Of a DNA stretch of 64,000 bases, positions 1 to 62,538 are shown piece by piece. Within the stretch, counting starts at the first letter, position 1; each line of letters opens with the position of its first letter. The notes below the pieces were generated by a model. That model was not told where the DNA came from and searched no databases. It was given only the letters and a program-made list of their open reading frames with translations. The translations under genes and the position numbers were made by a program. Origin of the DNA: Balanoglossus misakiensis (taxonomy: Eukaryota; Animalia; Hemichordata); the NCBI GenBank assembly GCA_040954595.2, contig CM082581.2:6006699-6070698 (forward strand). Direction: 5' to 3'.

Positions 1-2602
1 CCACATATACTCCTCAGGATGTTCGCCACCAAGGTCATATGGAGCATTTCTTCCATCGCAATACTGCGTAAAATGTTCGAAATCTCTATATTGTGTCCCC
101 TTTTGATTGAAAACCATGCAGTCAGATATGGAGGAATAGTAGCGAGCTCGATTTCCAGTGCTGTTTGTAGATGATCTTTAAGCTCCTGTAGACTTAATAT
201 CGGGATATCACCGAGCTGTGGGTCATCAAGCCATCGCAGAATCGATTGTTGCTTTTGTTTGGACAGGTCTCTGGTAAAAGGCATAAATGCTGGATCCGTA
301 TCCGGCAGGGACATTGTCAACTTCACCATTTCCTTCTTACGCAGAATATCTTCATAAGAAGCCATGTTGACGACTTTGTTCATACTAGGAAACATGTTTG
401 CATACATTTTGAATATTGGATAAATGTCCTGATACCAAGTCGGTCCACCATCTGAAAGATGAAAGTCGTCGTACATGAGGATAGCTATTGGCTGGTTAGA
501 AGTGAACGGTTCTTTCACATGGACTTGGATGTCAAAGAGATACAGCTGTCCATCAATTATTTTTCTTGGGTTTCCAGGGCTTTGTCCCGTGAAGTCTAAC
601 CAGGTAACGCCATTATTATCCGTTATCTGATACTGGGAATGCTGGACAGCGCTTGTAGACTCTCCGGTTTTTTTTTCGACTGGTCTAGACATTTTCATTT
701 CCAGTGAAACGTTGTGTAAAGGTCTTCCAAATGCGGTCAAGAATGTTTGCACTTGCCAGACATCTCCAGGATTTTGTCTGAATATTCTTTCGCCTAAAAC
801 ACCAACTGCAACCCCGTCAACTCTCTCTGCAAGTACGACGCGCAAACAGGCCTGTGTGTTTCTATCCAACTGTCGGATCATCAATGGTCGATGACGGATA
901 TCACTGAGCTGCTGTTGGGTGAGATCAGAATCTTCGGGAATGCTGATGACTCCTCCTGTGGTCTCATACCAGTTTGGACGTGTATAATTAATTTGATCTA
1001 GGACTTCGACATGTGTGTCACAACTTAAAGACTGGGTCGCCTGAGCAGAAGGAAATGCAACCTCCAAGATTTGATTGAGATGCAAATCTGGGGATCCTGA
1101 AAGGTTATGCATGAGGGTGTTTCCAAGGTCAATCAATATCTTACCACGGTCCGGAAAGACTCTAAAATTCGCCATTCCAAAGTCCTCGGTATCTAACTGC
1201 CCAAGCTGTCGATGGCGAAGTCCATGCAATGGCAGAGCAGAACCGGCAATACCTATGCTTCCAACAATTCTACCAGTGAGAAAATGTGTCGATGTAACAT
1301 CGGAATTATAAGAATCCAAGTTAAATTTTATGGACAGCACATTCTGATTGCCGCTGGCATAGCTGTGTTCCTTTAACTCTTCCAAAATGCGCGAATGCTC
1401 CAGTTTATTTTGCCAGTCCACGTCGACCAGCAAGGAAAAGAATTCGACGCCGAGGGCGCCATCACGTTCAGCATGAGGCATTTTATGAAATGCATTCTCC
1501 ATGGCTGTTTCAAGTAGATTGGCTGTGAACGCACCTGGTAAATGTAGAGTCATTCCAAAAATGGCTGAAACTTTCTTGTACTCGGGATCCAAGTCCGCCA
1601 TCTTTGCTTGAGAACGTTTAACATTACCTGAAGGAAGCAATATTAAAACATGTTATCTTCGACTCTGTTTGCTAAATGTATTTTACATGCCTGATCGTAA
1701 AATATCCATGTTGCGATTCACCTCCACGCTTTCTATTGTGATAGAACTTCTCCAGTTTAGTCAGGAACATTTGAAATGCAAATTTGTCGGAATGGTTACC
1801 ACACACTTACTCAAGATATGTGTTCCGATCAGGGAATCCTCGATCGAATGAGTGACGCATTCGCCTCGTCTGTAGCAGACGCTAGTCACTTTACACTTCA
1901 ACAGCTGGAAGGATCCCGAGCCGTCGGGGTTGTATCCTAAAATATCTGGTCTCTGCCGCAGCCGTTCATCGAAGGTCGTGATGTCGTAGTTCTCCACCTT
2001 GTTATTACCAGTTGGCGAGTCGGCCATGAATGTGCCAGCGAAGTGGAACCGCGGCCAATCGAGGTAAGAACCGCTGTTTTCTGCGAAGTTATAGATACAA
2101 CATACGTTTGTGATTATTCAAGTCCAAACTGTGCAGAGTAGTATAGAAACATGGACACGAACAAAATCTGGAAAATGTTAATAGTAATCATCATCATTAG
2201 CTCGCGTGTTTACATACACATGCGTTTATGTCGTGCCGATTTCACTTTGTGAATGTGTGTCGGTGTGTGTGTCTGCCTGCATACACGATATATCGCGAAC
2301 GGCAGAACAGATTCAACCCAAAATTGGTACACTGGTTCATGTTCATAATGACAAGAACTGATAAGATTTTTTTTCTGGTAGGGCTTGCATATTAATGAAA
2401 GTTATCAGGGTTTTAATGTTTCTATTACATGGCTGTCTATGTGAGACAACATTGCATACGATTAACTGTTTCCTTTGTTTAACTCACCTTCACTGAAAGT
2501 TGCAGCATTGCGAACCCATTCCGTCTTGTCGAATGCGCCAGAGAGCCCGAAAGCCAAACATATCAACGCCGTCAGTAGCAGCATGCCTCGGAATCGTTGC
2601 AT
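1..2602 (-). CDS. VioB/RebD/StaD-like ferritin-like-domain protein, copy A (3' end runs off the window)
   Basis: Exons 2602-2488 (MQRFRGMLLLTALICLAFGLSGA..., signal peptide), 2080-1811 (ENSGSYLDWPRFHFAGTFMADSPTGNN...), 1627-<1 (SNVKRSQAKMADLDP...). Both introns are GT-AG and phase 1. Colinear with copy B; the indels seen (+9 nt near 1350, net -33 nt near 650-700) keep the frame. ELATIPPYLTAWFSIK and EEMLH motifs lie at about 45-150. Confidence 0.85.
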
Positions 2603-3716
2603 TTTGGTTCTGCGGCACGAACCAATCTGCCGGTCGTCCACGAACCAACTTCAGTCTTATTTCGCAAATCGTTCTCCGTGGTGAATTCAACGCGGACGAG
2701 TGAGACTCACCTGTACAGTGTGGTCATGAGTGAACACACGTTTTCATATGACTTCCGAGATGTTATTTTATCGGTAGGAAGTGCAGGCTTTGTTAAAATG
2801 TTGACATACCCTGGTCATCAACACCACAGAAGTTATGGCTGTTGGAATTGAGGCGCAGAGGGTAACAATTGCAACGTTTACGCGTCCAGTAAGTTGGAGA
2901 CGAGTGGCAATCCCGGCGTACACGCCATTTTTAGAGTGGACTTCATCAGACGAACCTGAGTACTGGCTGACCTGTTCCATTTTCGTATTTACATACATAA
3001 TAATAGGCACCTCCGCTGGTGTCCACGGTTCGGACAAGTTACATGATTGGTTGGCAACATCTGGTCAAGTAGGAATATGTATGGCTCGAGATCGTGAAGC
3101 CAGCAGGACAGATGGCACAGCGAACGAATGTGTGCCCTGGGCAGGACATGCCACCCGTACGGATTCTGAAGAACCGTTTGCAATCTCTGTTGAACCCGTA
3201 CAAATTTACAACGACATGGTCGCTTTACGATCGAGAAACCATTAATGAGCTGGCTAATTTCTGAATTTATTTATAATTTTTCACATCATACACCGTAGAG
3301 TCGATCTAGACATAAGGATATCAGATAAAGATATCGGGACTACTGCATACTGGTGCGCAATTAGTGAGCAGTCAGGTGGCTCAAGATGAGTTGTGGACAG
3401 GATTGGAGAGATGTGAAGAGAGTACTCGACTTTTGATGGTAACATCAGTATCCTGTTTCTGAATTCAAAAATCACTCTGGAAGAAAAATGTGACACATAC
3501 ATGTAGCAGAGACCTCGCCCGTCAATTCTATCTCACCTTACCTGTTCCCAAACTCCCCAATCCATTTAGGCCACCTATGCGTTAACAAAATCGGTCTGGC
3601 CATCTAACACTGTACGTGCTAGTCCAAGAGACTATACAGCCTTATGCAATTTGAGAAACAAAGGACTTTAACATTTCCGCCTAATATAAAACCTTCATAT
3701 TGCAATCAAAATCAAG

Positions 3717-6700
3717 CTAGAGTTCAGATTTCTTTCTCCCGATGCGTTGTGACATCTCCCCAGGGTCAACATGGGGGATTGAAAGGAATTCAAACGTCGG
3801 TGTGCCATTTGGGCCTATGTTTGGGTCCCCACCCGGGCGGATCGGAGTCTTCACCAACTGCCGACCAAGCAGTTCGATTTTGGCCATCATCGACATGCAC
3901 GTTTTCATCTCCCTGGGATTTTCGTTAAACGCCCGGTGAATGCAGCGCAGGAGATTGGAGTATTCGGTATTGAAACGGTAAGATAAAAGTCTCACTTTGG
4001 ATTCTTTGGGATAGCTGTGTCTCTGTGGGTCATCGATTATGGGCCATATCCCATCAACGTGGAATGGTAATCTCTCTCCTGTGAAATGATAAGGTACTTT
4101 GCATCTCTCGTGTACGTACATCCGGTTGCAGGGTTTGTAATTAGCCCCACATACCCTACTAGTATATCGATCAGAATAATCGATAACACACGCGTCGATA
4201 GAGGTTCTTGCTTCATAGTACGTCTTCTGTGCTGAGTCCTTATCTAGTACGAGTCTATTGCCCATCACAACCTCAAGAAATTTGAAGTAGTGAGAGAGAT
4301 TACCGTCATAATCAAATGGCTGTGTGGGAGAACTCCCCTCTCCCTCCTCTGTTATTACTAGAATAGCCCTTCTTGCATCTTCTATACTCAGCACGGGAAA
4401 TGGTCGCTTCACTGCGTGACTATACCAATCGTCCTCTGTAATCTGTGTGCTTTTGCTCCCGCATCTGAACAGGTCGTTGTCTTTGTTTGCATGGAATAAG
4501 AGGGATCTCCATATTTTCTTATAGTAAAACTCCCCAATTGTGTTGTAGTGATGCTTCAAGTGAGGTTCAGAACTCGATTCGTGTTCTGTGCTGTAAAGAA
4601 TACTCTGACGCAGCTGAATAGGAAGTGTGTCGTCTGGTTCCTCTATTTTCATGAAGACATCCTCTATGAGACCTTTGCTGAGTCTGTGAAGTGACACAGT
4701 CAATCCTGGGTGAACTCCTCCCGGTAATTTTGACGGATACTTAGGTATCACCTTTACATCGTCCAGTACTGGATGACCACATATACTCCTCAGGATATTC
4801 GCCACCAAGGTCATATGGAGCATTTCTTCCATCGCAATACTGCGTAAAATGTTCGAAATCTGCACATTGTGTCCCCGTTTGATGGAAAACCACGCAGTCA
4901 GATATGGAGGAATAGTGGCGAGCTCGATTTCCAGTGCTGTTTGTAGATGATCTTTAAGCTCCTGTAGACTTAATATCGGGATATCACCGAGCTTTGGGTC
5001 ATCAAGCCATCGCAGAATCGCTTGTTGTTTTTGTTTTGACAGGTCTCTGGTGAAAGGCATAAAAGCTGGATCCGTATCCGGCAGGGACAGTGTCAACTTC
5101 ATCATTTCCTTCTTACGCAGAACATCTTCATAAGAAGCCATGTTTATGACTTTGTTCATACTAGGAAACATGTTTGCATACATTTTGAATATGGGATAAA
5201 TGTCCTGATACCAAGTCGGTCCACCATCTGAAACAAGAAAGTCGTCGTACATGAGGATAGCTATTGGCTGGTTAGAAGTGAACGGTTCTTTCACATGGAC
5301 TTGGATGTCAAAGAGATACAGCTGTCCATCGATTATTTTTCTTGGGTTTCCAGGGCTTTGTCCCGTGAAGTCAAACCAGGTAACGCCATTATTATCCGTT
5401 ATCTGATGTTGGGAATGCTGGACAGCGCTGATGTGGTGGTTAAATTGAATGTCATCGCCATCTGTAAATCGTGGAGACTCTCCGGGGTTATTTTCGACTG
5501 TTTTAATTTCCAGAGAAACGTTGCGTAAAGGTCTTCCAAATGCGGTCGAGAATGCGTGCACTCGCCAGATATCTCCAGGACCTTGTCTGAATATTCTTTC
5601 GCCTAAAACACCAACTGCAACTCCATCAACTCTTTCTGCAAGTACGACGCGCAAACAGGAATTGGTGTTTCTATCCAACTGTCGGATCATCAATGGTCGA
5701 TGACTAATATCACTGAGCTGCTGTTGGGTGAGATCAGATTCTTCGGGAATGCTAATGACTCCTCCTGTTTTCTCATACCAGTTTTGACTTGTATAATTAA
5801 TTTGATCTAAGACTTCGACTTGTGTCTCACAACTTAAAGACTGGGTCACCTGAGCAGAAGGAAATGCAACCTCTAAGATTTGATTAAGATCCAAGTCTGG
5901 AGATCCTGAAAGGTTATACATGAGGGCGTTTCCCAGGTCAATCAGTATCTTACCACGGTCCGGAAAGACTCTAAAATTAGCCATTCCGAAGTCCTCGGTA
6001 TCTAACTGCCCAAGCTGTCGGTGGCGAAGTCCATGCAATGGCAGGGCAGAGCCTGCAATACCTATGGTTCCAACAATTCTACCAGTTCGAAAACTGGTAG
6101 ATGTGACGTCAGAATTATAAGAGTCCAGGTTAAATTTTATGAACAGTACATTCTGATTGCCGCTGTATTCCTTTAACTCTTCCAAGATCTGCGGATGCTG
6201 TGGGTCATTATGCCAATCCACGTCAGTTAGCAATGAAAAGAATTCTACCCCAAGGGCGGAATCAAATTCAGCGTGAGGCATTTTACGAAATGCATTTGTC
6301 ATGGCTGCTTCAAGTAGATTGGCCGAGAAAGCGCCTGGTAAATGTACAGTCATTCCAAAAATAGTCGAGGCTAGCATATGCTCAGGATCCAAATCCACCA
6401 TCTTTGCTTGAGAACGTTTAACACTACCTATGAAGGAACAAGAATATGACAGTAAATCTTCGACTCTGTCATACGCCTCTGCAACTATTGTACCTGCTTT
6501 GCATATGGGCCTGAGGCCTTGTAATGCAAATAAGTGATGCACCCTACAAAAAGTTTATGATTTATATATACCTTACTCACAACCCAAGGCCAATTTCAAC
6601 CACTCTTCTGTGGATACCATGGTGATTAAATTTAGAAATTTGCAGTGAACTTACATTTAAAATAAAATATAATAAAATTGAGATTATCTTTTACATGCCT

Positions 6701-7762
6701 GGTCGTTTAATATCCTTCGTTTCGATTTACCTCCTTGTTCTCTCAATTTTGAAAATTGCTCCGATGCTTTGGCATAAGTTCAATTTAGTCTAAAACATTT
6801 GAACTGGGAATGCGTCTGGTCACCACTTACTCAGGATGTTTCTTCCAATCAGGGAATCCTCGATCGAATTTGTGATGCATTCGCCCCGTCTGTAGCAGAC
6901 GCGAGTCACTTTACACTCCAGCAGCTGGAAGGATCCCGAGCCTTCGGGGTTGTATCCTAAAATATCTGGTCTCTGCCGCAGGCGTTCATCGAAGGTCTCG
7001 ATGTCGTAGTTCTCCACAAGATTGTTGCCAGTTGGCGAGTCGGCCATGAATGTGCCAGCGAAGTGGAACCGCGGCCAATCGAGGTAAGAACCACTGTTTT
7101 CTGTGAAGTTATTGATAAAACGTACGTTTGTGAAAATTCTAGTCATAAACGGAAAAATCTTGTTAAACAATCAAAAATGGATCGAGACTAGTAGATGACC
7201 ATGTTTCAGTTAAAAAACACCACCCCCAACGTATTTTGCCCATACATATATATAATGTGAAAATAAAGTGGGCGAGGGGAAGCACCATTGCCATCAGCGA
7301 TTTCACTGAACTGTGGATTGTAATACCAGTGAAGTCCACGTTGCGTTCCCAACACTGCCACGTCGCATTAAAGCTCGCTGGACTGTGACGTGAAAAGCGA
7401 GCGTTTCCTATCGTTTTAAAATAAACTGTCTTTCGAGAAAGCCGTGTAAAATCTGCTAATTTGTGTGAACTTTCTCTTATTGGAAATTACAATTCTTATT
7501 ATTTACATACCCATGTTATGTATGTATGCAATAATAGCCACAAAAAGGTCGAATGGAAGCAACAAAAACAGCAGTATGGTCGGAACATTGAAATGAATGA
7601 TATGAGTTTTTATAAAGTTACCTGTGACGTTGCCATTTTAAACTCACCTTCACTGTCAGTTGCAGCATTGCGAACCCACTCCACCTTGTCGAATCCGCCA
7701 GAGAGCCCGAAAGCCAACAATATCACCACCGTCAGTTGCAAGAAACATCTGAAAAGTTGCAT
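3717..7762 (-). CDS. VioB/RebD/StaD-like ferritin-like-domain protein, copy B (complete, 1031 aa, signal peptide, C-terminal KSEL)
   Basis: Exons 7762-7648 (115 nt, MQLFRCFLQLTVVILLAFGLSGG...), 7100-6831 (270 nt), 6427-3717 (2711 nt); total 3096 nt, in frame. N-terminal SYLDWPRFHFAG..PTGNN..GYNPEGSG resembles the VioB-family start (ILDFPRIHF..PTAN..GYN). C-terminal LQTALEIELATIPPYLTAWFSI..EEMLH..IEEP..EEGEG..SHY matches the ferritin-like domain of VioB. Confidence 0.88.
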
Positions 7763-10700
7763 TTTGGTCCAGAGTCGCGAAACCTGCCACTCGTACCCGA
7801 ATCAACTTCTTGTCTTGAAACTTGTTCTTGGGCGTTGTGCGCGGTGAATTCCACGCTGGCAAATCAAGTTACCCTCTAGGCCTTACAGCAGGCATAAATG
7901 CGAATGCGACACACTTCACTGATCAACATAGACATTGCCAATGAGATGCGAGAGATGATCCGCAACACTTTCGTAATGTTGTCTGTGATTGGCCAGTGAA
8001 TGTATTTGGCAGAAATTCATCAAATGTGTACGTAATTTTCTCATTCTGTAAAACACTTGGAAGAGTTGCTGCTTCGATATTGCCTCAAAGGACCTTTGCA
8101 AAATAAAATTATCGTATCGACATACTAAAGAAAAAACCCTCTTCGTCAACGCATGGGCAGGTTGATGTCTCTTTAATTTACAATATACCCGACTGATAAA
8201 AAAACGCATGTACGAAATTCCACTCAGTTTTATTAATCTCTCCTAAATATCCAAGATTATATTCTAAGAGGAAATTGAGCTTAGTATTTTGGTGATTTTC
8301 ATAGAAACAAATGTTAGTATACCGATACATTCAAGACTTGGTCTCCATCCAGAACAGTTGAATCATGAGATATTTCACACATGATATCATTACTATACGG
8401 CTTCCCGTGGGTGACGATGCCTGTCTGAACACCCGCGACATTTCCTAAAGCGAATTTGTGTCCGATTTAGCCCAAGAAAAATTAGCTTGATCAAAATTAA
8501 ATGAGTTCGCAAATCATCACCTGCTTCGGATCCCACAAAGTCGCCCACTCCAAGAAACTATTTTGATATTTAATTTGTCCCATCCTGATTATATGCTGTT
8601 TTACCCCTCTCTGCTGGCTGTAGGGACATAAGTTCCCCATTTATTGATATATCTGTCACTGGCTTGAAGTGTGCAAGTGTAAATTACCCTGTAGACGTAA
8701 GATGTTTTCGAGGCAACGGCGAAATCCCGGATAAATATTCAATTAATATCTCCCCGAATAGCTGTCGGAGGGTGAATTTGACTTCCGCTGAAGCGTGGCC
8801 AAATGGCGTGGAATCGATGTATTGATTAAACACGGCATGGAGACCAACTCCGAGGGAAGCCTCCTCGCACGTACACGTCGTGATGGCAATGCCAGGATTT
8901 ATACATCTCACCCATCACCTAATAACGACGCAAACATTTCAGCAGTTGACTTAAAAGGAGAGATCTTCATGTACAGTCTGGTTGTTTGTAGATTTTATAG
9001 GATCACTTTCAATAACGGCATGTGCTTATGACTTCCCGGAGGAACTATAGGTTTGTGTTGGAAATTGATGAGTATAAAGCCAAATTTATCTGAGCCATAC
9101 ACGCAACAATTCGAATTGGGAGCACACTGTCCTTTACGCTATATTTCTACTTACAATAAAACACTTCAAATTTCTCGAATTTCATAAAGTGTTACATAAT
9201 TGATACTCTAAAGAGAAAAGCTAATGCAAGGCCTACATCAAAATATAAAATGTTATAACGGAATGGAGGCTGCAATACCAACATGTTGTTTTGTACAGAC
9301 CGGCAGACAGACAGACAGACGGACGGACGGACAGGCAGGCGGGGTACATAATAGCCAGCTCGAGAGAATCAAAAATACAGGAAAGGAAACATAATATGAT
9401 AAGTGTCTTCATACTCTTATTCCCACTATTCGCTTTTCACAGGATTGTGAAAGTGGGTTGACTGTGCAAACAAAACACTACAAGAGCCTATTAATAGAAC
9501 CATTACTCATTGATAATAGATCACATGACACAACGTGACGTCGGCCTCCGGACGTACACGTAATTGTGGAAACGTCGAAGCGACATGCTAAACCCAGGAG
9601 TGTTAACTTTGTGTATCGACACTTGTCAAGCTATACAGCCTCGTCTGTCCAGTCACCTGTCGTGTCTCCTGTCGCACCGACGAACAGACAAAAGCTGCTG
9701 CATTGTAGGAAGACTCTGGCCATCGTCGCCATGCCAACGTGACGAGAGCTCGTATATAACACGCACGCTTGGAAGGTAAAGGTGGGTACCTTTAAATTGT
9801 CGTTTCTGTGAGCATAAAACCATGCCAATTTCGGAATGGATGTACATGCATGCGTAAAATGACAGGAGTGATATACGCGCCTGGCAACGATCACGGAGGG
9901 GAAGATCTGATTGACTATGGTGACAAAATGACACGAATAAAATAAGGGAAGTTGGGACAAATTCAGAGGAAATATCTTCTCATTCGAAAGGGAAATTTTG
10001 CGATAGTTCTAATGCGCCACTTGCAATTGATTCCTATGTGAAGAATACGCTAATCCCTGTCTGAGTACTAACATTTCAGAGTTTACATACATGAACCATG
10101 TGAAAATGTTAAGAATGTCGGGAGTGACGTTGTTTTAGGCGGACGCGAAGCCTGTAGTTTGCAAAATAGAAAATCCCGTTCGATAGTGATCACGACCTTA
10201 TGCACCGCCAAACATTTCAGTATTTTGCTGAAATATCATGAAGGAAGCTATAGACATATTGAGGCAGAACAAATGCGGGGATGTTTTGATATATTAAGCT
10301 TGTGAAGTGAACTTCGCAGACTTTCATTTTTCAAAACTGTTCGGACCAGAAAGGATCGAGGTTTGCTAAGTTCTGGACTGAGATAAACCTTCCTGTCGAA
10401 AGGATATATAGAGAGAAATCTAATTGCAAATAACGCCGTCGATAAGAGTTTCTTGTGGATCGTTTTCTTTATAAGGAGCCCGGTTTTGGGGAGTAAAAGA
10501 AACAATAGCTGTTTGTGTCTGGTTTAAATTGCCAGCGGCAAGGTTATTCGCCATTGTTGCTCTAATTGTAGTAGTCTGTGAACGTACGCCATCGTTGGTT
10601 ATAGACGTCTTTGCTTCGTTTTTGTGTACCACGTATTACGCGGCGTCGTCAGCAAACAAAAGAATACGACCGATATTGCCGCTGCTGGCTTTCAAAAAGC

Positions 10701-10817
10701 ATGGCGAGACCTTCCTGTACACCAGAACAGAAAAAATGTGGATTATCCGCCTTTCATCATATTATAAATGACGTTTACGTTTCTTTCAGATCTCCATACT
10801 CGGCGATTGCCGATAAC

Positions 10818-11561
10818 ATGGAGGAAGTTTCGAACGCAGTCCCTCCCACGACAGTTCAAGTTTGTGATTCTTGTTGCTTGCCTGGCCGGAATTCGGGGCG
10901 TGACTGTCACCATGGCTCCCAGGCCACAGACGAGGGACGGTACAGAATACAACAACCAAAAGGGATCCCGCCTCTGGAAGTTCTGCTGCTGTGTACATCA
11001 GTTGGGGCAGTGAGCACGTGCATCGGACTTCTTATTCTGAACAAAGCAATCATGACATTCACCTTTTCGGGGTCCCTGTGCGTCTGCCTCCTCCTGGCCA
11101 GCGTTATTTATAACACGCACACAGCACGCATGCGCCAACCTGAGTCCGACGACCACGAGCTGAAATCCAGTGACTATCGTCGTCTCGATGATTTAATAGC
11201 GCATGTCAACAAACCTGACCGCGGGAATAATCATTGGTCGGTTCCTGTGAAACTCTCCTCAAAAAATTCCGACAATACAGAGAATTTCACACTTCTGGCG
11301 AAAAGACGTTGTGCTAAATCAAAAGACGAAGACGTTGATAGTATCGATGATGATGATGATGACGGGGATGATGACGATGATGATGAAGACAAGAGTGATA
11401 GCAAATGTGGGACAAAGGAACTCGACATATATGTGAAGAAAATAACCGTTTGTCGGAAGTCTCGCCAAAGACTTGATATTTTCTGGAAAAGATACCGTTT
11501 GAGACGGAGACGGACAACTCGATTACCAACGTATTTACTCCACTGCATCGGTTGCAAATAG
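10818..11561 (+). CDS. Uncharacterised protein, 247 aa, two predicted TM segments, acidic Asp tract, basic C-terminus
   Basis: Long open frame. ATG in good context (AACATGG) lies 28 nt after a strong acceptor (gtttctttcag, 10789). Hydrophobic stretches LEVLLLCTSVGAVSTCIGLLIL and IMTFTFSGSLCVCLLLASVIY. No family recognised. Confidence 0.55.
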   Translation: MEEVSNAVPPTTVQVCDSCCLPGRNSGRDCHHGSQATDEGRYRIQQPKGIPPLEVLLLCTSVGAVSTCIGLLILNKAIMTFTFSGSLCVCLLLASVIYNTHTARMRQPESDDHELKSSDYRRLDDLIAHVNKPDRGNNHWSVPVKLSSKNSDNTENFTLLAKRRCAKSKDEDVDSIDDDDDDGDDDDDDEDKSDSKCGTKELDIYVKKITVCRKSRQRLDIFWKRYRLRRRRTTRLPTYLLHCIGCK

Positions 11562-61341: not shown

Positions 61342-62520
61342 CTATAGCCTGGACACGGTGGCGTTGTTCGGTGAACTGTTGCACGTCGTGAAGTCCAGCG
61401 TGGTTTCCATGCGCAGTTTCCTCGGCTGCGACCGCAGCTGCTGCCCGCACAGCTTCAGGTTGCCGACGCGCAGTAAATCCTTGAAGGCGTTCTTGAAGTC
61501 CTTGTTCAGGCAACCGTAGAGGAACGGGTTGACGGCCGAGTTGGCGTAGCCCAGCCACACGAACACCACGAAGACCAGCTCGGGTATGCAGTCGCCGCAC
61601 AACGGCGAGACGACGTTCATCACGAAGAAGGGCAGCCAGCAGGCGACGAAGCAGCCCATGATCACCCCGAGGGTCTTCGCCGCTTTGCCGTGCTCCTTCA
61701 TGGTGCTGGCCTGCTTGTGCTTGCGGCGGTTGAGCGGCGAGCGGGTGGACGAGTTTTTGGCCGTCAGTTTCTCCGTGCACACGGGGCTGGAACCGACAGC
61801 CGTCTTGTAAATCTGCTTGTGGTGGTAGCTGGCCGTCTTATAAATGCGCCAGTACACGAAGCACATGATAATCAAAGGAATGTAGAAGGAAATCAATGAC
61901 GACGAAATGGAGAACGCCGTGTTGAAGTTCACCAGGCACTCCATCGGAGGCTGTTCAAAGCCGGGTCTCTTGTACCAGCCCAGAAATATCGGCACGAAAC
62001 CGATCAGGCCCGATATTATCCACACGACCGTTGAAATGCACGCCAGCTTTTTCGCCGACATTTTTGCATCGTAAGTGAAGGGGTAGTTGATGGCAACGTA
62101 GCGATCGATAGCGATGCAGCACAGGTGGTTGATCGACGAGGTGCACGCCACTATGTCGATCGCCAGCCAAAACTGGCAATAGACGCTGCCGAAGTACCAC
62201 TTCCCGGCGAAGTGGTACGTGAGGGTGGTGGGCATGATGAGGGAACCCATCAGCTCGTCGGCGAAGGCGAGGTTCAGGATGAACAGGTTGGTCATGGTCC
62301 GCAGGCGCCGGTACTTGAACACCGCCACGATGACGAACACGTTGCCCACGATCGCCGTCAGCGTAATCACGGCGAACACGATCCCCAGGACCATGTCGCC
62401 GGCGCCCAGAGTCGACGCGGACTCGTCCTGTCCGCAGGAAGCGCCGCTGGAGTTGGCGAGGTCGCTCTCCGATGAAACATTGCACGGATTTCCCAGGTCC
62501 ACATCATCAGGAGCGGCCAT
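61342..62520 (-). CDS. Aminergic class A GPCR, probably Gs-type (D1-like dopamine / beta-adrenergic-like octopamine receptor group), intronless CDS, 392 aa
   Basis: 7 TM. GNVFV (TM1), LAFAD (TM2), D3.32 in IDIVACTSSINHLCCIAIDRY, TM5 serines in ISSSLISFYIP, KAAKTLGVIMGCFVACWLPFFVMN, WLGYANSAVNPFLY; short ICL3; high GC3. Confidence 0.95.
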   Translation of the reverse strand: MAAPDDVDLGNPCNVSSESDLANSSGASCGQDESASTLGAGDMVLGIVFAVITLTAIVGNVFVIVAVFKYRRLRTMTNLFILNLAFADELMGSLIMPTTLTYHFAGKWYFGSVYCQFWLAIDIVACTSSINHLCCIAIDRYVAINYPFTYDAKMSAKKLACISTVVWIISGLIGFVPIFLGWYKRPGFEQPPMECLVNFNTAFSISSSLISFYIPLIIMCFVYWRIYKTASYHHKQIYKTAVGSSPVCTEKLTAKNSSTRSPLNRRKHKQASTMKEHGKAAKTLGVIMGCFVACWLPFFVMNVVSPLCGDCIPELVFVVFVWLGYANSAVNPFLYGCLNKDFKNAFKDLLRVGNLKLCGQQLRSQPRKLRMETTLDFTTCNSSPNNATVSRL

Positions 62521-62538
62521 CGTATCTCCAATTCACAA

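Follow-up and report, generated by a model that had tools for sequence, protein, structure and literature searches.

Tandem VioB-like genes in the acorn worm Balanoglossus misakiensis: putative secreted haem/di-metal proteins of a sequence-defined sister family to VioB

The closest described systems are the bacterial enzymes VioB, RebD and StaD of the violacein, rebeccamycin and staurosporine pathways. According to the accessible part of PMC9705886, VioB contains haem b and shows catalase activity, and the accessible portion of a 2021 review lists no VioB structure. Here we compare these enzymes with genes in a stretch of 64,000 nucleotides of the hemichordate Balanoglossus misakiensis (contig CM082581.2, positions 6,006,699 to 6,070,698 of the forward strand; "the window" is the whole of this stretch). 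The minus strand of window positions 1-7762 carries two tandem copies, A and B, of one VioB-like gene. Gene B is complete, its three exons encoding 1031 aa, and gene A comprises 670 codons before the window edge (exons 2602-2488, 2080-1811 and 1627-<1). An initial annotation, made from the letters alone, saw in them full-length relatives of VioB, RebD and StaD, possibly acquired horizontally and serving an indole-dimer pathway. Judged by their sequences, the acorn-worm genes are members of a separate, uncharacterised sister family and not VioB, and it is likely that they encode a secreted haem/di-metal redox protein. Their features are as follows.

Gene B, exon 1: 7648..7762, minus strand; start codon, signal-peptide-like segment (about aa 1-23, 7694-7762) and a short hemichordate-type leader
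Gene B, intron 1: 7101..7647, minus strand; 547 nt, GT-AG, phase 1
Gene B, exon 2: 6831..7100, minus strand; VioB-type N-terminal motif region and beginning of the beta-rich module; TIGR04492 positions 2-28 matched weakly
Gene B, intron 2: 6428..6830, minus strand; 403 nt, GT-AG, phase 1
Gene B, exon 3: 3717..6427, minus strand; remaining beta module, predicted cytochrome-c-like domain and ferritin-like domain; 2711 nt including the stop (about 903 codons)
Predicted cytochrome-c-like domain of gene B: 4983..5264, minus strand; 94 aa, without CxxCH; Met552 (5157-5159) and Met585 (5058-5060) as candidate haem ligands
PF12902 ferritin-like domain of gene B: 4269..4946, minus strand; the structural domain extends to near the C-terminus
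Gene A, exon 1: 2488..2602, minus strand; signal-peptide-like segment
Gene A, exon 2: 1811..2080, minus strand
Gene A, exon 3: 1..1627, minus strand; truncated within the ferritin-like domain by the edge of the window, with the equivalents of both Met and of E630, E663 and H666 present

The relationship to VioB extends beyond the ferritin-like domain, as the initial annotation had proposed, and all the motifs quoted there are present. A profile of 76 family members aligned end to end with a profile of 41 VioB/chromopyrrolic-acid (CPA) synthases in HHalign (probability 100, E 5.4e-58, 812 columns, 20% identity), and the Pfam search then suggested matched exon 3 to PF12902 at 186 bits (1e-54; threshold 22.3 bits). 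Both families share a colinear three-part architecture, and 44 positions are near-invariant in both, including two Met, six Glu/His ligands, Y545, Y637, Y763, R265, E393 and R589. The acorn-worm genes nevertheless differ from VioB in essential respects. TIGR04492, the NCBIfam equivalog model of VioB, scores 9-14 bits with the window exons and 19.8 bits with the full-length Ptychodera flava protein P0001, against a cut-off of 1250 and 1779-1908 bits for true VioB proteins, which rules out membership in that family. BLASTP against a true VioB (L076) gave 47 bits over 199 aa, and in trees the VioB/CPA synthases stand about 2 substitutions per site from the sister family. In particular, gene B retains only 5 of the 64 polar or aromatic invariants specific to VioB, which mark its candidate substrate site, in an alignment of only 20% identity; among the residues missing are H54, H89, W121, H123, Y127, H194, C540 and W550.

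These differences also bear on the chemistry. Genes for VioA-, RebO-, VioC-, VioD- or RebC-like oxidases occur at none of the 75 loci of bacterial relatives examined (the estimated number of matching genome stretches being about 1200), whereas tryptophan-oxidase-type genes, read from translations, flank all five VioB loci and a RebD-like locus, as expected from the available part of PMC10851217. An actinomycete with an indolocarbazole-type cluster (L091:5580-13733; RebO-, RebD-, RebC-, RebP-like and glycosyltransferase genes, named from translations) also has a split sister-family member elsewhere. In the 64-kb window itself no VioA-, RebO-, VioC-, VioD-, RebC- or RebP-like sequence was found at E 0.01, in agreement with the initial annotation on VioA; VioE and halogenases were not searched for. 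We consider it unlikely that the animal proteins are true arylpyruvate or indole-pyruvate (imine) dimer synthases, which would act with a secreted L-amino-acid oxidase and yield bis-indole or diarylpyrrole defence compounds or pigments. Such an activity would be consistent with the redox core, all of which is common to VioB, and with the expansion of the sister family in hemichordates and demosponge-like sequences. Enteropneusts moreover contain bromophenols and bromo- and chloroindoles of unknown biosynthetic origin (as stated in the accessible part of PMC6315191), and oxidative dimerisation of arylpyruvic acids has served for biomimetic syntheses of the lamellarin cores known from ascidians and sponges (likewise for PMC4278223), the enzymology of these cores being termed practically untouched in 2010 (in the part of PMC3039461 at hand). 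The TIGR04492 scores, the loss of VioB-specific residues and the lack of linked tryptophan oxidases speak against it. The proviso of the initial annotation, according to which the chemistry of uncharacterised bacterial homologues could be a different one, is the better reading. Branchiostoma members carry the automatic UniProt label "iminophenyl-pyruvate dimer synthase domain-containing".

A structure model was made for P0001, which is 61% identical to exon 3, as a stand-in for the spliced protein (predicted local distance difference test, pLDDT, 86.8; predicted template modelling score 0.79). Three parts can be told apart in it: a module rich in beta structure, a small domain of helices and a bundle of helices. 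For the acorn-worm protein the prediction is a beta-sandwich module at about aa 42-525 and a cytochrome-c-like domain at about aa 530-605, together with a ferritin-like bundle. Foldseek with the full model returned only 3HL1 and generic beta-sandwich arrays (complement C3, alpha-2-macroglobulin and intimin; query template modelling score at most 0.11), and neither this nor the sequence search of the Protein Data Bank (PDB) found a full-length match. The C-terminal part superimposes on Caulobacter CC_0557 (PDB 3HL1, a PF12902 protein; Z 27.2, root mean square deviation (rmsd) 2.3, 255 residues; sequence E 1.4e-6), a stand-alone domain of unknown function that, unlike the animal genes, has neither beta module nor haem domain. 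Next among the matches of the bundle are the Dps, bacterioferritin and Mn-catalase folds (Z 9-11). The predicted di-metal ligands in gene B are E630, E663, H666, E724, E825 and H841; the second ExxH of the ferritin-like domain reads NxxH in gene B, at a position that varies in the sister family. Of the 24 complete animal rows checked, 23 retain the core residues, and gene A keeps all of these residues that lie within the window. In Sanderia malayensis P0182 both Met are retained and all six iron ligands are lost, which makes it a likely pseudo-enzyme.

The small helical domain is the candidate haem site. Equivalents of Met552 and Met585 are present in 149/149 rows and are likewise invariant in VioB/CPA synthases (VioB Met529 and Met564; L076:1501-4524), while no His of the N-terminal module reaches 85%. 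CxxCH is absent in all 45 rows, and a covalently attached haem is hence not expected. Folded alone, the 94-aa domain (pLDDT 87.7) finds c-type cytochromes in all five of the best matches among 48,161 chains and in 15 of the 50 listed, with PccH first (Z 6.6, rmsd 2.8, 77 aligned). Class I cytochromes c (PccH, DHC, PSCyt1) are therefore the best, if weak, structural matches; they bind haem covalently through CxxCH, whereas the animal domain has a Met near the place of the proximal His. In HHalign comparisons with 25 PSCyt1 domains, preselected for the Met-Pro motif, the local alignment brings the distal Met-Pro and closing helix into register (probability 7%), and the global one sets the first Met beside the CxxCH His (probability 0.5%). 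In bacterioferritin, a haem b with two Met ligands occurs together with a di-iron site.

Several results weigh against a cytochrome-c-like fold. The Z of the PccH match falls below the trust level of the tool itself, Foldseek of the 94-aa domain found nothing at E 0.001, and Pfam and PDB sequence searches with it found no cytochrome. The two HHalign probabilities just given are low, although the scores exceed those of all shuffled sequences (local 20.2, best of 30 shuffles 16.2; global 9.4, best of 100 shuffles 8.5). On balance, we lean slightly towards a bis-Met haem b at Met552 and Met585. As such a haem would be saturated, peroxide chemistry would be expected at the di-metal site.

In each protein the most hydrophobic stretch comes from exon 1 (in gene B a 15-mer with Kyte-Doolittle hydropathy, KD, of 2.5), and a hydrophobic N-terminal segment (KD12 at least 1.8) occurs in 22 of 25 animal rows against none of four bacterial ones. 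VioB rows likewise have no signal, in contrast to the signal-peptide-like N-terminus of the animal genes, which also add more Cys and N-glycosylation motifs to the bacterial form. EGF/FN3, LDLa and TSP1 domains, all of extracellular type, are fused to members in Dendronephthya, Branchiostoma and Ciona. These fusions and the N-terminal segments point to a location in mucus, matrix or at the cell surface; it counts against this that the signal peptide was called from hydropathy and not by a dedicated predictor. The 3' end of gene B intron 1 lies 5 codons ahead of the start position of the bacterial proteins, which would fit the addition of a signal exon to the front of a bacterial-type protein and is consistent with an origin from bacteria. 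P0265 combines a signal-like start with 25 N-glycosylation motifs and a hydrophobic C-terminal tail.

We regard the chances as about evenly balanced that the VioB-like animal enzyme oxidises or couples aromatic substrates outside the cell. In this scheme the di-metal carboxylate site would take up O2 or H2O2, and a non-covalent b-type haem on Met552 and Met585 would relay electrons from a phenol, catechol, indole or enol/enamine substrate sitting at the beta module. The radicals formed, whether in mucus or matrix or on the cell surface, could then couple to give C-C dimers or cross-links. The substrate would probably be other than the tryptophan-derived imine of violacein synthesis.

A less probable, though not negligible, alternative is an extracellular peroxide scavenger or iron-oxidising protein, in which the di-metal site would act as catalase/peroxidase or ferroxidase and the haem as electron relay, with no specific organic product. 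As with bacterioferritin or Mn-catalase, its role would be protective, here of mucus and cell surfaces. The Dps, bacterioferritin and Mn-catalase folds among the structural matches are consistent with this, as is the catalase activity reported for VioB. PF12902 proteins stand beside the H2O2-making oxidase LodA in fungi (accessible part of PMC4417212), and among our bacterial loci a GMC oxidoreductase occurs at L095 and a LodA about 4.5 kb from the pair at L130. A general role would also fit the taxonomic spread of the family. Its members occur in lineages that are not known for alkaloids, such as amphioxus, Lingula and a freshwater sponge. Every full member, however, carries a 500-residue beta module with invariant residues of its own, which exceeds the needs of a scavenger; the only characterised relatives couple organic substrates, and biosynthetic operons are found at 16 of the 75 bacterial loci. 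We consequently prefer oxidation or coupling of an aromatic substrate.

The bacterial "ferritin-like protein" family to which the acorn-worm genes belong shares with them all core residues. At E 0.001, 2727 cluster representatives match (150 listed); bacterial members are 29-33% identical across 95-98% of exon 3, are either fused (about 900 aa) or split (about 620 + 350 aa), and those checked lack a hydrophobic N-terminus. A search of the ESM Atlas returned only unnamed bacterial clusters. Operons of the ebo type were found at 16/75 loci (16/50 of those of at least 15 kb), the direct count of EboD being 16; the figure of 27 derived from clustering is an artefact of a DedA fusion. They occur in Bacteroidota, Proteobacteria and Cyanobacteria, and three of the four annotated plasmid loci viewed carry ebo genes. 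Other neighbours among the 75 loci are a VOC gene (12), a DedA-like match (17) and a P450 match (1). Relatives occupy a place within an ebo (thallusin) operon or at its head, in many cases beside a VOC-fold gene, at L013, L015, L017, L018, L026, L028, L030, L044, L046, L049, L055, L056, L059, L062, L066, L074, L128 and L130. A neighbouring gene of 140 aa, considered as a stand-alone copy of the small haem-like domain, was rejected as such and is a VOC/glyoxalase protein.

The ebo products are hydroxylated, prenylated quinolines and thallusin, with an oxidative step that has no assigned enzyme (bioRxiv 10.64898/2026.05.21.724671, main text), and either the sister-family gene or the VOC-fold gene is a candidate for it. 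Neither the main text of that preprint, for a ferritin-like or VioB-like gene, nor the accessible part of the original ebo paper (PMC5133447), for the sister-family gene, contains a mention. One might picture an oxygenase that opens or rearranges catechol-type rings, as in the saccharoquinoline-to-thallusin step of bacteria; animals would use it on aromatic signals of bacterial or dietary origin, to alter or eliminate them. The operonic position in three bacterial phyla is in line with this, and so is the main text of the preprint, which finds no ring-cleavage enzyme and suggests iron-assisted chemistry. The same text, however, names no ferritin-like or VioB-like gene and reports no ring-cleavage enzyme conserved among producers; the VOC/glyoxalase-fold gene at 12/75 loci is itself a candidate dioxygenase, and most loci are without ebo. 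We rate this reading as improbable, slightly more so than the dimer synthase. Moreover, as ebo genes are absent from 59/75 loci (34/50 of those of at least 15 kb), ebo chemistry need not be the core job of the sister family, a circumstance that also weakens aromatic oxidation as the general function. The ebo link suggests that part of the sister family acts on hydroxylated aromatics, and no more than that.

Within animals, the best 8 of 222 matches are from Ptychodera (58-61%), Glandiceps (55%) and Saccoglossus (47-49%). Among 30 clusters looked up, 12 bore an animal name (Branchiostoma six, Oscarella two, Lingula, Ciona, Sanderia and Corticium), one a bacterial name and 17 no taxon; Oculina and Dendronephthya gave additional matches, as did Ephydatia with 2 of 37 matches in a separate search. 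The family thus extends over Porifera, Cnidaria, Brachiopoda, Hemichordata and two chordate subphyla, that is, five phyla (Chordata counted once) and six groups. Among the matches at the top of the lists, where 17/30 clusters are without taxon, the names include no vertebrate, arthropod, mollusc or non-animal eukaryote.

Trees were computed with FastTree (131 rows) and IQ-TREE in quick mode (61 rows); supports are Shimodaira-Hasegawa-like approximate likelihood ratio test (SH-aLRT) values from quick LG+G4 trees, and several animal labels are inferred from the position of the protein in the tree. The window genes stand with Ptychodera within a hemichordate clade (100), itself within a bilaterian group (97-98), and they group with the rows of amphioxus, tunicates and brachiopods (SH-aLRT 97). 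Without VioB, 21 animal-labelled rows are split from 31 others (SH-aLRT 99), and the branching order of homoscleromorphs, demosponge-like sequences, corals and bilaterians is roughly that of animal phylogeny. Because the animal sequences form one such group, the transfer would be ancient and not specific to acorn worms. A single ancient origin, probably from bacteria, followed by vertical descent with losses, is probably the best account of these sequences. Of the horizontal transfer initially proposed, the bacterial source accordingly remains probable, while its restriction to acorn worms is not supported, and neither is a lineage-specific acquisition tied to acorn-worm chemistry, for the family spans sponges to chordates and its animal rows form one side of a branch. 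A recent transfer into acorn worms is rejected on the animal distribution and the trees.

Some results run counter to this single origin. The SH-aLRT of 99 was obtained after removing the VioB outgroup and three rows (P0171, Sanderia and P0124); when VioB serves as outgroup the animal clade still appears, with a support of only 5, and a tree forcing the hemichordates with VioB is not rejected (approximately unbiased test, p-AU 0.25). The direction of transfer, probably from bacteria, rests on the breadth of the family there, no donor having been found. A clade with extended N-termini inside the bacterial fused group (P0074, P0142, P0154, P0158, P0161, P0167, P0169 and P0173) could be a second, non-animal eukaryotic acquisition. 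Several of the demosponge-like copies (P0093, P0408-P0411, P0209 and P0424) share contigs of 2.2-2.3 Mb, which suggests tandem expansion. P0171 is a sister-family member with an OTU-like protease domain fused to its C-terminus.

The gene models themselves are consistent with functional animal genes. Open GT-AG combinations numbered 12 for gene B and six for gene A, and the combination with the consensus donors GTGAGT and GTAAGT was chosen; the AG acceptors of gene B are pyrimidine-rich. Under this model both phase-1 introns fall at identical places in A and B, and P0001 aligns without a gap, by eye, at either junction. The two copies are 87.5% identical over 664 codons (dN 0.068, dS 0.21, dN/dS 0.32) and are under purifying selection, which bears out the gene expansion of the initial annotation. 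Their G+C content at third codon positions (GC3), 0.47, equals that of the LYAR exon. LYAR, IGFBP/Kazal and rhodopsin-type G-protein-coupled receptor (GPCR) genes, recognised by Pfam, are the animal neighbours in the window. Bacterial contamination or decaying, non-functional inserts are under these circumstances hardly credible; the roughly 900 codons in a single exon, a correct observation of the initial annotation, are all that would favour them, against shared intron places with consensus sites, host-like GC3, the dN/dS, the animal neighbours and 47-61% identity to three hemichordate genera. The genes are integrated in an animal chromosome, as had been stated, with canonical introns.

The position next to LYAR described initially needs a small correction. 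The zf-LYAR match is close by (about 14.1-14.4 kb) and does not directly adjoin gene B; a plus-strand frame of 318 codons (10605-11561), with two hydrophobic segments and an acidic run and without a Pfam match, lies between them. At 17.6-21.4 kb on the minus strand follow two tandem IGFBP/Kazal/Ig-like genes, the first of which matches IGFBP and Kazal_2. An intronless aminergic-type rhodopsin-family GPCR gene occupies 61342-62532 (minus strand), with a GC3 of 0.85, far above its surroundings.

In the literature covered, from which subscription papers including the primary RebD, StaD and VioB biochemistry were mostly absent, no study of animal members or of the bacterial sister family was found, and the initial statement that no animal member has been characterised holds to that extent. 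A 2026 paper on horizontal gene transfer in tunicates does not mention the family in its text or in one supplement (PMC13390645). The boldest interpretation is that animals have kept, since the ancestor of sponges and bilaterians, a secreted enzyme derived from bacteria in which a bis-Met haem in a cytochrome-c fold is wired to a di-iron site and which dimerises aryl- or indole-pyruvates. We deem this unlikely; if true, it would supply the missing animal-encoded synthase of lamellarin-type pyrroles and bis-indoles in sponges, sea squirts and acorn worms, and VioB, RebD and StaD would have this same bis-Met haem as their cofactor site. For these three enzymes the comparison predicts that the two invariant Met of the cytochrome-c-like domain bind haem, with O2/H2O2 chemistry at the di-metal site. 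For animals, the genes represent a putative extracellular metalloenzyme family without prior study that has been kept intact across at least six marine and freshwater invertebrate groups. They are also a candidate for oxidative coupling chemistry encoded by the animal itself, a role for which symbionts are the usual assumption.

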